This document shows, piece after piece, positions 4,117-6,694 of a stretch of DNA of 7,698 bases. Made by a program: the position numbers and the translations under genes. The stretch is taken from the IMG/VR virus record IMGVR_UViG_2684622670_000020; one strand, given 5' to 3'. The notes below the pieces were generated by a model that searched no databases, was not told the origin of the DNA, and was given only the letters and a program-made list of their open reading frames with translations. Position 1 is the stretch's first letter; every line of letters starts with the position of its first letter. This stretch comes from a virus (Duplodnaviria; Heunggongvirae; Uroviricota; Caudoviricetes).

Positions 4117-4416
4117 ATGAAACAGAAAAATTCTGGCTTTACTGCCAGCGGCCTCCCTCGGCCTGAAATCTGCCCCGGCGATATTTACCGGGATAAATAC
4201 GGCAGCACGGTAATGATTAAAGGTGTTGCCGGACGGTGCGTTACTTACCGCCGTGAAGGTTATGAATATGACTGCGTGATGTCTGTTTATCAGTTCCGGC
4301 GTGATTTTTCTCTGGTACAGAACGCAACACGCGGTAAGCCCACCAGCAGGGAAAAAGCACGGGAAAATATTAAGAAAATAAAAAGCATGCTCAGCGCATC
4401 CAGAGGTAAAAAATGA
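4117..4416 (+). CDS. small hypothetical protein, 99 aa, basic C-terminus
   Basis: ATG 4117 with GGAGA upstream; its stop overlaps the rep start (ATGA at 4413-4416). No family recognised. Confidence 0.55.
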   Translation: MKQKNSGFTASGLPRPEICPGDIYRDKYGSTVMIKGVAGRCVTYRREGYEYDCVMSVYQFRRDFSLVQNATRGKPTSREKARENIKKIKSMLSASRGKK

Positions 4417-5819
4417 AACTGGCACCAAACGTAAAACTGTTACCGAAAGATAAACACACTGAGGCGGTTATTTTTGCGGGTGATAATGCTCACTCCTTTG
4501 CAGAACATTACATGATTGCACAGGCCAAAAAAGCAGGCGATCCCATCCCTCCGGTTTACCTGGGCCGTTATCAGTTAAGCGAACTGGACAATTTACAGAT
4601 TGTTGATGAAGGACGATACAGAGCAAAGGTCATACGCGCCGGAAACCTGGACGATATGCAGATGCTGACCATTGCCACAAAACTGGCGATCGCAGGTGTC
4701 CGGGAAGCGCGGTTACTTTCAGAGAATTTCGAACTACTGGAGGACTGGAGCGAGCAACTACCGCGCCTTAAAGAAACCTGGGAACGTGGGGAAAGCCTGG
4801 TCATGAATGGTGGAAAGCGAAAAATCACACTTCCCATCTCATGGGGTTCTGAGGGATTCGACGCGCAGCAAAGCTACGTAATTAAGGGGCTTATTCCGGC
4901 TGAATCATTATGCAGCACCTACGGCGCGAGTGGTTCCTATAAATCGTTCCTCGCTATCTCCTGGTCGTGCCATGTTGCCACAGGTATGGCATGGGGAGGC
5001 CGCAGGGTAAGTAAGGGCGCGGTTATCTATATCGCTGGCGAAGGCAGTATGGGCGTAAAACGCCGCGTTAAGGCGTGGGAGATAACCCACGACAAGGTGG
5101 TTACAGATTTGTGCATCATTAACGCGCCTGTTTTCCCCGCATCGCCTGACTATGTGGAGCAGGTTATCAGGACTGCCGGACTTGTTAAGAGCAGAACGGG
5201 CGAAAATGTGCGGCTGATTGTGATCGACACACTGGCCCGTTGCTTTGGTGGGAATGATGAAAATGATTCCCGCGATATGGGCGCATTTATCCAGGGGTGT
5301 GACGCGATAAAGCAGGCCACAGGGGCCACGGTGCTGGTGGTTCACCATTCCGGCAAGGATGAAACAAAGGGGGCGCGTGGTTCCAGCGCATTCCGTGCCG
5401 CGCTTGATGCAGAGTACCGAATCAGCCGGGAAAATTCAGACGTTACAGCACTGGTGGCGGCGTGTACGAAGATGAAGGACGCAGAGGAGCCAAAAGAAAG
5501 CGCATACGACCTTAAAAGCGTGGAGGTGTTTACCGATACAGATGGCGAAGAGATTGTGTCTATGGTGGTGATTGACGTTCCCCGCGCCCCTGCTGAACTG
5601 GAGCGCATAGAGGAGGCCGGGAACAAGACGGAAAATCACGCCGCATTATGGCAGTGCATCAGAACACGGGCAGCACACAAAGAGCCATGCACTATCGCCC
5701 TGCTACGCGACGATATGAAAAAGCTGGGGTATGAGATGAAGCACTTCCGGCGCTGGCTGTACAAGCTGGAAAATGATGGCGTAATCGTTATTGACGGTGA
5801 TGACGTGCGCCCACTGTAA
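4413..5819 (+). CDS. RepA-like (AAA_25 / DnaB-like RecA-fold) replication ATPase-helicase of the island
   Basis: P-loop-like GASGSYKS, Walker-B-like LIVIDTLARCFGGNDENDS and VLVVHHSGKD, which is the motif order of RepA/AAA_25 replicative ATPases. About 90 C-terminal residues look like a separate possible DNA-binding domain. An iteron array lies immediately downstream. Confidence 0.75.
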   Translation: MKLAPNVKLLPKDKHTEAVIFAGDNAHSFAEHYMIAQAKKAGDPIPPVYLGRYQLSELDNLQIVDEGRYRAKVIRAGNLDDMQMLTIATKLAIAGVREARLLSENFELLEDWSEQLPRLKETWERGESLVMNGGKRKITLPISWGSEGFDAQQSYVIKGLIPAESLCSTYGASGSYKSFLAISWSCHVATGMAWGGRRVSKGAVIYIAGEGSMGVKRRVKAWEITHDKVVTDLCIINAPVFPASPDYVEQVIRTAGLVKSRTGENVRLIVIDTLARCFGGNDENDSRDMGAFIQGCDAIKQATGATVLVVHHSGKDETKGARGSSAFRAALDAEYRISRENSDVTALVAACTKMKDAEEPKESAYDLKSVEVFTDTDGEEIVSMVVIDVPRAPAELERIEEAGNKTENHAALWQCIRTRAAHKEPCTIALLRDDMKKLGYEMKHFRRWLYKLENDGVIVIDGDDVRPL

Positions 5820-5820
5820 A

Positions 5821-6022
5821 AAGTGGGGAGTAAAAGTGGGGAGTATGGGGAATTTAACAAAATTGAAACACTATTCCCCACTTTTCGACCTGTATACATC
5901 CAAAAAAGTGGGGAGTAAAAAACACAATGAAAAACAAAGCATTAGATTCACCCAAAAAACGAGATGGGGAGCAAGTGGGGAATTTAAAAAGTGGGGAGCA
6001 AAAGTGGGGAGTGGTGGGGAAT
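5821..6022. repeat. iteron array, putative origin of replication of the island
   Basis: Ten copies of the core (G/A)TGGGGA: direct at 5823, 5836, 5845, 5908, 5964, 5975, 5991, 6004 and 6014, and inverted at 5875-5881. They form two clusters (5823-5851 and 5964-6020) flanking an AT-rich stretch, immediately 3' of rep. Confidence 0.6.
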
Positions 6023-6272
6023 GACCAGAAAAACCAGAGATAAGACAGCGCCAAAATATAAAGCATTAGACATGACAGAGCACGCCTTAAAGGTGGCAAT
6101 CAGAACGATAGACCGCCATGCCGGGGAAGGATACGCGAAAGCACATCCCGAACTGATAAGCGCATTCATGACCACGGCGGCGGCAAACTTTGCCACGCTG
6201 ACTGAGCGGGAAATTGCGGAAGCGGAACAGGTGACAACCATCAACGTTAAAACCGGAGAGGTGACAGCATGA
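6021..6272 (+). CDS. small hypothetical protein, about 83 aa
   Basis: ATG 6021 lies 9 nt after GGGAG inside the last iteron; the ORF track opens at GTG 5991, within the repeats. Its stop overlaps the ssb start (ATGA at 6269-6272). No family recognised. Confidence 0.5.
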   Translation: MTRKTRDKTAPKYKALDMTEHALKVAIRTIDRHAGEGYAKAHPELISAFMTTAAANFATLTEREIAEAEQVTTINVKTGEVTA

Positions 6273-6694
6273 CAGCACAGATAGCGGCTTACGGGCGGCT
6301 GGTGGCTGACCCGCAGTTAAAAACCACCAGCAAGGGAACACAAATGGCGATGGCGAGTATGGCGGTTTCCCTGCCGTGCAGCCAGGCCGATGACGGAACG
6401 GCGACGATGTGGTTATCCGTTCTGGCGTTTGGCAGACAGGCCGATGCACTGGCCAGGCACCACAAAGGCGAACTGGTGAGCGTGGCGGGTAACATGCAGG
6501 TAAGCCAGTGGACAGGCCAGAACGGCGAAACGCGGCAGGGCTGGCAGGTCATCGCAGACAGTGTAATCAGTGCGCGAACGGCGCGACCGGGCGGCAAAAA
6601 AGGTCAACAGGGCCAGGCCACTGACGCACTGAACAGGGCAAAACAACAGACAGGCCAGCACGATGACCCGTACGGGGACGGGATACCGTTTTAA
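6269..6694 (+). CDS. ssb: single-stranded DNA-binding protein (SSB)
   Basis: OB-fold pattern aligns by eye to E. coli SSB (MWLSVLAFGRQAD vs EWHRVVLFGKLAE; KGELVSVAGNMQVSQWTGQNGETRQGW vs [27 protein letters not shown]). Gly/Gln-rich linker, and acidic C-terminal tail DDPYGDGIPF ending in the SSB hallmark IPF. Confidence 0.85.
   Translation: MTAQIAAYGRLVADPQLKTTSKGTQMAMASMAVSLPCSQADDGTATMWLSVLAFGRQADALARHHKGELVSVAGNMQVSQWTGQNGETRQGWQVIADSVISARTARPGGKKGQQGQATDALNRAKQQTGQHDDPYGDGIPF

Follow-up and report, generated by a model that had tools for sequence, protein, structure and literature searches.

The 468-amino-acid protein Rep, encoded in the window (the whole 7,698-nucleotide stretch of DNA that was analyzed), is probably an initiator-helicase specific for the origin of its own replicon, an E. 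coli phage satellite, carried on a cf-PICI-type (capsid-forming phage-inducible chromosomal island) element by gcd and served by a cognate origin 3' of its gene. More tentatively, at somewhat short of an even chance, we suggest jointly that a large RepA/SF4-type branch works with Tyr or Phe for the second Gly of Walker A and that residue 444 of Rep sets the iteron that is read. An N-terminal domain is followed by a RepA/AAA_25 RecA-fold motor and then a C-terminal winged helix, as follows.

4413 to 5819, forward strand: rep, encoding the 468-amino-acid probable initiator-helicase (ATG to TAA; open reading frame list and translation)
4413 to 4790, forward strand: N-terminal domain, residues 1 to 126, a compact alpha/beta module with no Pfam family
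4848 to 5597, forward strand: RecA-fold ATPase/helicase core, residues ~146 to 395 (AAA_25 and primase-helicase PHROGs)
4923 to 4946, forward strand: noncanonical Walker A, G171-A-S-G-S-Y176-K177-S178 (translation and alignment to PDB 1g8y)
5040 to 5042, forward strand: catalytic Glu210 (motif 1a, YIAGEGS), invariant in both alignments
5226 to 5228, forward strand: Walker B Asp272 (LIVIDTLA), invariant
5343 to 5360, forward strand: motif H3, H311-H312-S-G-K-D316, aligning to FLHHASK of RepA, with H311 and H312 invariant
5376 to 5378, forward strand: putative arginine finger Arg322 (GARGSS), with R322-G323 invariant and the role inferred from the RepA family
5631 to 5816, forward strand: predicted C-terminal winged-helix domain, residues 407 to 468 (AF2 model and Foldseek)
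5742 to 5744, forward strand: His444, candidate for base reading, at the N terminus of the recognition helix (association with iteron class)

A domain search, the check proposed in the preliminary description, placed Pfam AAA_25 on residues 146 to 317 (E = 3.3e-43; 148 bits against a gathering score of 27) and established homology to RSF1010 RepA (PDB 1g8y; E = 4e-5 with the single sequence and 3e-4 with the profile). The full-length match was phrog_2850, primase-helicase PHROGs covered residues 151 to 395, and cluster representatives were alignable over residues ~135 to 465. K177, E210, D272, H311, H312, and R322 were invariant in alignments of 142 and 94 representatives, and LIVID272TLA, YIAGE210GS, VVH311H312SGKD, and GAR322GSS were all present and invariant or nearly so (150 representatives); the Walker B and HHSGKD motifs are indeed intact, as had been proposed. 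The same residues make up the catalytic set of RepA-family 5'-3' helicases (residue roles from PMC8965321), and the homologous core of RSF1010 RepA has the Walker A Lys-Ser, the motif 1a Glu, the Walker B Asp, the H3 His, and the Arg finger in common with Rep. By sequence, then, Rep is a RepA/AAA_25 helicase (RSF1010 RepA-like, RecA-fold), predicted to form a hexamer and to unwind DNA in the 5'-3' direction with ATP. That it is instead a nonreplicative RecA/RadA/KaiC-like or defense ATPase carried as cargo has a probability close to negligible. Weak NCBIfam matches to RadA (E = 4e-5) and RadB (E = 6e-4) and sporadic KaiC and Rad51 Pfam matches among relatives point that way, but RadA scored 22.9 bits (cut-off, 259) and RadB 19.8 (cut-off, 172.4), the top assignments were AAA_25 and RepA, the gene lies in the rep slot of its island, which an SF3 Rep-plus-ori cassette can occupy in its place, and some relatives are fused to primases or to DnaB-N. 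With scores about tenfold below the curated cut-offs, a RadA, KaiC, or recombinase identity is effectively excluded; a full-length RecA, RadA, or KaiC assignment, which the preliminary description had named as evidence against a replicase, was looked for, and no curated model scored above its cut-off.

The canonical Walker A GxxxxGK[ST] is not found in Rep, which retains the Lys-Ser; since GGAGKS of 1g8y aligns onto GSYKS, Tyr176 occupies the position of the second Gly. To our knowledge, this Gly is almost universally conserved and a bulky residue there is very unusual. G[AP]SGSYKS was nonetheless kept in 120 of 120 close relatives, with Tyr176 in all of them. Among the 149 representatives aligned at this position (from 150 cluster representatives; family hits totaled 32,252), the residue was Y in 47, F in 34, G in 56, L in 7, C in 2, R in 2, and T in 1; because 93 of the 149 thus have a residue other than Gly, the strict motif does not define the branch of the RepA family to which Rep belongs. 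When the PDB was searched with a profile for solved relatives that have a bulky residue in the P-loop, only RSF1010 RepA, which has Gly, was returned, and a search of the open-access literature for GSYKS-type P-loop strings returned nothing relevant, an absence that is no proof of novelty.

If the Tyr blocked the nucleotide, Rep would be an ATP-dead initiator, limited to marking the origin by way of its winged helix and bringing in host DnaB in the manner of lambda O or a plasmid Rep, its RecA-fold core serving as an oligomerization scaffold. The near universality of the second Gly, its presence in the sole solved relative, a window with no primase or loader match, and an island-supplied SSB that fits dependence on host replisome parts are all in keeping with such a protein. 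A dead site would be expected to decay, however, and Lys177, Ser178, Glu210, Asp272, His311, His312, and Arg322 were invariant in Tyr-, Phe-, and Gly-state members alike, through ~14 switches between Gly and non-Gly on a neighbor-joining tree (45 if random) with no relaxation of the other motifs. Relatives with Y or F in the P-loop, moreover, carry a fused Toprim or Prim-Pol primase, as functional primase-helicases do. We therefore regard an ATP-dead Rep as unlikely and read the Tyr P-loop, from these alignments, as a functional clade-wide variant and not an inactivated site. A candidate contact of Tyr176 is residue 384, a Leu in the non-Gly members and an Ala or Cys in the Gly members. The preliminary description was thus right in placing a Tyr at the Gly position and fared well in its replicase and origin-binding parts; the label "degenerate" did not survive, as the Tyr is a conserved character of the clade.

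Downstream of rep, the following features were located.

5823 to 5914, strand not assigned: left iteron arm, with [AG]TGGGGA at 5823, 5836, 5845, and 5908 (forward) and at 5875 to 5881 (reverse)
5915 to 5962, strand not assigned: A-rich spacer, 71% A+T, probable melting site (composition and analogy to PICI/SaPI origins)
5964 to 6020, forward strand: right iteron arm, five direct [AG]TGGGGA at 5964, 5975, 5991, 6004, and 6014
6021 to 6272, forward strand: conserved 83-amino-acid open reading frame (phrog_1231), starting at the last iteron
6269 to 6694, forward strand: island SSB, ending ...DGIPF (Pfam SSB, E = 4e-16)

Ten copies of [AG]TGGGGA (nine forward and one inverted) lie around the 48-nt spacer, and the left arm also holds a conserved CCTGTATAC box at ~5890. 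Exact copies of AGTGGGGA numbered 7 in the 7.7-kb window, all within 5822 to 6010; with up to one mismatch there were 13, against 5.1 ± 2.1 expected, and none of 200 shuffles reached 13. Iterons directly 3' of rep, as first described, are therefore real: they lie right after the stop codon, and no shuffle reached their number. The layout of iterons and spacer was repeated in 11 loci of E. coli, Salmonella, and Yokenella and in about 77 further loci. Origins of PICIs and SaPIs have two iteron arms around an A+T-rich center 3' of rep and are functional (PMC6092414, PMC9371898), and by this analogy the spacer is the probable melting site here. Alternatively, the repeats might be mainly an operator through which the winged helix autoregulates the downstream genes (the 83-amino-acid open reading frame, SSB, ProQ, and PerC), with the true origin elsewhere. 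The right arm does stop precisely where the next open reading frame starts (ATG at 6021), and many winged-helix structural neighbors of the C-terminal domain are transcriptional repressors. Yet a scan of the origin region for promoters and terminators found nothing above chance, with no sigma-70-like promoter in 5650 to 6150; the two-arm, A+T-centered layout is the proven origin arrangement in the satellites just cited; and it persists in four loci that have a different downstream gene or none (L007, L009, L010, and L012), the 83-amino-acid gene being at the same position in L003 to L006 and L008. A role mainly as operator is thus quite improbable, and the repeats may serve as both origin and operator.

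The preliminary description had named the C-terminal domain (about residues 380 to 468) as the candidate for origin binding. In the AF2 model (pLDDT ~90), this domain has an H-H-H-hairpin topology (H1, 407 to 421; H2, 428 to 438; H3, 445 to 454; wing, 458 to 467), and the top Foldseek matches were DtxR/IdeR, HrcA, IclR, Fur, MarR, and histone H1, at probabilities of 0.95 to 0.99 with weak E values (at least 0.03); the neighbors include the DNA complexes 1ddn and 2it0. Of 333 columns, residue 444 was the best for association with iteron class (normalized mutual information, 0.86; runner-up, 0.56). Across 80 loci, His occurred with GTGGGGA in 11 of 11, Asn with GTGAG in 27 of 27, Ser with GTGCGGC in 9 of 9, Gly with GTGCGCG in 2 of 2, and Lys with GTGGGGG in 28 of 30, an association that is correlative and drawn from phylogenetically related loci. 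The pairing of residue and iteron core (GTGAGGA being the core for Asn) is almost one to one, and the fourth iteron base is G with His or Lys, A with Asn, and C with Ser or Gly.

The His/Asn switch at residue 444 was found in both E. coli-type and Xenorhabdus-type C-terminal domains. In the recombinant alleles of loci L004 and L011, the ATPase is 67 to 68% identical and the C terminus 95 to 96%, and the iteron is still GTGGGGA; in that of L003, the ATPase is 99% and the C terminus 74% identical, and the iteron is GTGGGCA/GTGGGAA. A global Mantel test against iteron distance did not separate the domains (C-terminal domain, r = 0.62, partial 0.16; ATPase, r = 0.67, partial 0.36), and since both distances correlate, clade structure confounds it; it was set aside, and support for specificity comes from the comparison of recombinant alleles and from the per-column test with internal controls. 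Iteron binding by the predicted winged helix at residues 407 to 468 is strongly supported by these comparisons together with the model, and the pattern at position 444 looks like a one-residue code setting the iteron that is read.

[quoted passage not shown] Because the window stops at PerC, before the capsid genes, assignment to the cf-PICIs rests on a syntenic locus (L001; 96 to 97% identical), which continues with capsid, protease, portal, HNH, TerS, and TerL genes between gcd and hpt. Through this locus, the cf-PICI layout (int, alpA, and rep, then capsid, protease, portal, connector, HNH, TerS, and TerL genes of the island itself, about 15 kb) is found, and the layout described for EcCIEDL933 matches it. 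Judged by its genes, the element is a cf-PICI-type phage satellite, with helper induction and tail-only piracy predicted. Strain ATCC 43886 has the same island with an SF3 D5-type Rep and its own GGTGAACAG iterons after the stop codon, and an SF3 version of Rep fills the rep slot in locus L002; on this comparison, motor, winged helix, and origin move together as a cassette.

The gene upstream of rep overlaps its start.

4117 to 4416, forward strand: DUF4222 gene, candidate partner (Pfam DUF4222, E = 9e-24), translationally coupled to rep with a 4-nt overlap

Searches of Pfam, NCBIfam, and PHROGs assigned no open reading frame of the window to a primase family, in agreement with the preliminary description, which had left priming to the host or to the N-terminal region. 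The N-terminal domain, modeled like the C-terminal one as a domain flanking the motor, has a confident alpha/beta fold that is weakly Toprim-like, with the Toprim acidic residues apparently absent. Profile-profile comparison did not support it as a remnant of Toprim, DnaB-N, or Prim-Pol (hhalign probabilities below 1%), its profile matched nothing outside its own family among 149 helicase representatives, and against gp4/Twinkle-type primases there was no sequence-profile similarity and Foldseek was not supportive. The domain differs from those of T7 gp4 and Twinkle in having no Zn ribbon, only 126 residues, and no evident Toprim acidic residues; in these respects it is closer to Twinkle, with a primase-like domain that is considered inactive, than to gp4. 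Neither gp4 nor Twinkle has the origin-reading winged helix of Rep. DUF4222 was also rejected as a missing Zn ribbon (three scattered Cys, no CxxC pairs).

The N-terminal domain is shared with an unrelated SF3-type Rep of an E. coli island (45% identity); homology searches made with it returned mostly fragments under 230 amino acids, so that full architectures were deduced from the names of the sources and from locus L002. DUF4222 overlaps the start of rep in 13 of 13 loci with this domain, and lies upstream of the SF3-type Rep in L002 as well; 75 of 77 other loci lack it. The domain is more likely a noncatalytic adaptor or collar than a primase, and host DnaG most likely does the priming, perhaps brought in by the island SSB (IPF tail), the N-terminal domain, or DUF4222. 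The presence of this domain and the upstream DUF4222 on unrelated motors points to an unrecognized common step in satellite replication, for which primase or replisome recruitment or helper-phage control are candidates.

In the proposed mechanism, AlpA-dependent induction would be followed by docking of the winged helices of several protomers on both iteron arms. Motor hexamers would then assemble around or beside the A-rich spacer and melt it, and the motor would translocate 5'-3' as RSF1010 RepA does. The latter is a core only (279 amino acids) with a canonical GK P-loop and uses a separate RepC for iteron binding and RepB' as primase, whereas Rep has a fused iteron-reading winged helix and N-terminal domain. 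With SaPI1 Rep1, SaPI5 PriRep5, and EcCICFT073 Pri-Rep it has in common the C-terminal winged helix, a two-arm set of iterons immediately 3' of rep with an A+T-rich center between the arms, and a place behind int/alpA in a phage satellite. The same replicon organization was shown to be functional in EcCICFT073 (PMC6092414) and for SaPI Reps that have a C-terminal winged-helix domain (PMC9371898), and autonomous replication of rep-ori, with origin binding and melting without a loader, was shown for EcCICFT073 and SaPIs (PMC6092414, PMC9371898). The motors of these Reps are AAA+ (SF3/MCM-like, 3'-5'), whereas that of Rep is a RecA-fold RepA/SF4-type, expected to run 5'-3'; as Rep lacks an AAA+ motor, it would work like the PICI/SaPI Reps as a functional analog, not a homologous member. 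By analogy with their self-loading, with an SF4-type motor replacing AAA+, we infer that Rep loads itself without host DnaB/DnaC. Winged-helix reading of direct iterons by an A+T-rich region likewise recalls pPS10 RepA, RK2 TrfA, and F RepE, the initiators of iteron plasmids (PMC4980987), but these lack a motor of their own and rely on recruiting host DnaB, whereas the reader of Rep is fused to a helicase.

If the reading of the P-loop is true, the second Gly of Walker A would be dispensable in a RecA-fold hexameric motor or, alternatively, the aromatic ring would be a nucleotide gate through which ATP use is coupled to engagement of the origin or of DNA. The family offers dozens of naturally occurring Gly-to-Tyr/Phe replacements within an active site that is invariant in other respects, which makes the textbook requirement for this Gly testable. 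Phage satellites of the cf-PICI kind spread virulence and defense genes. Several can occupy the same cell, with up to 7 matching places found per E. coli genome, and coresident satellites need replicons without cross-talk. The comparisons suggest a simple solution in a movable cassette that unites motor, winged helix, and iterons and in which a change of one residue accompanies a change of one iteron base. If position 444 does set the iteron, one amino acid change plus one base change per iteron would yield orthogonal satellite replicons that could be engineered. Such a code of protein-DNA recognition can be tested directly and would open a way to programmable, mutually orthogonal replicons in delivery tools based on PICIs.

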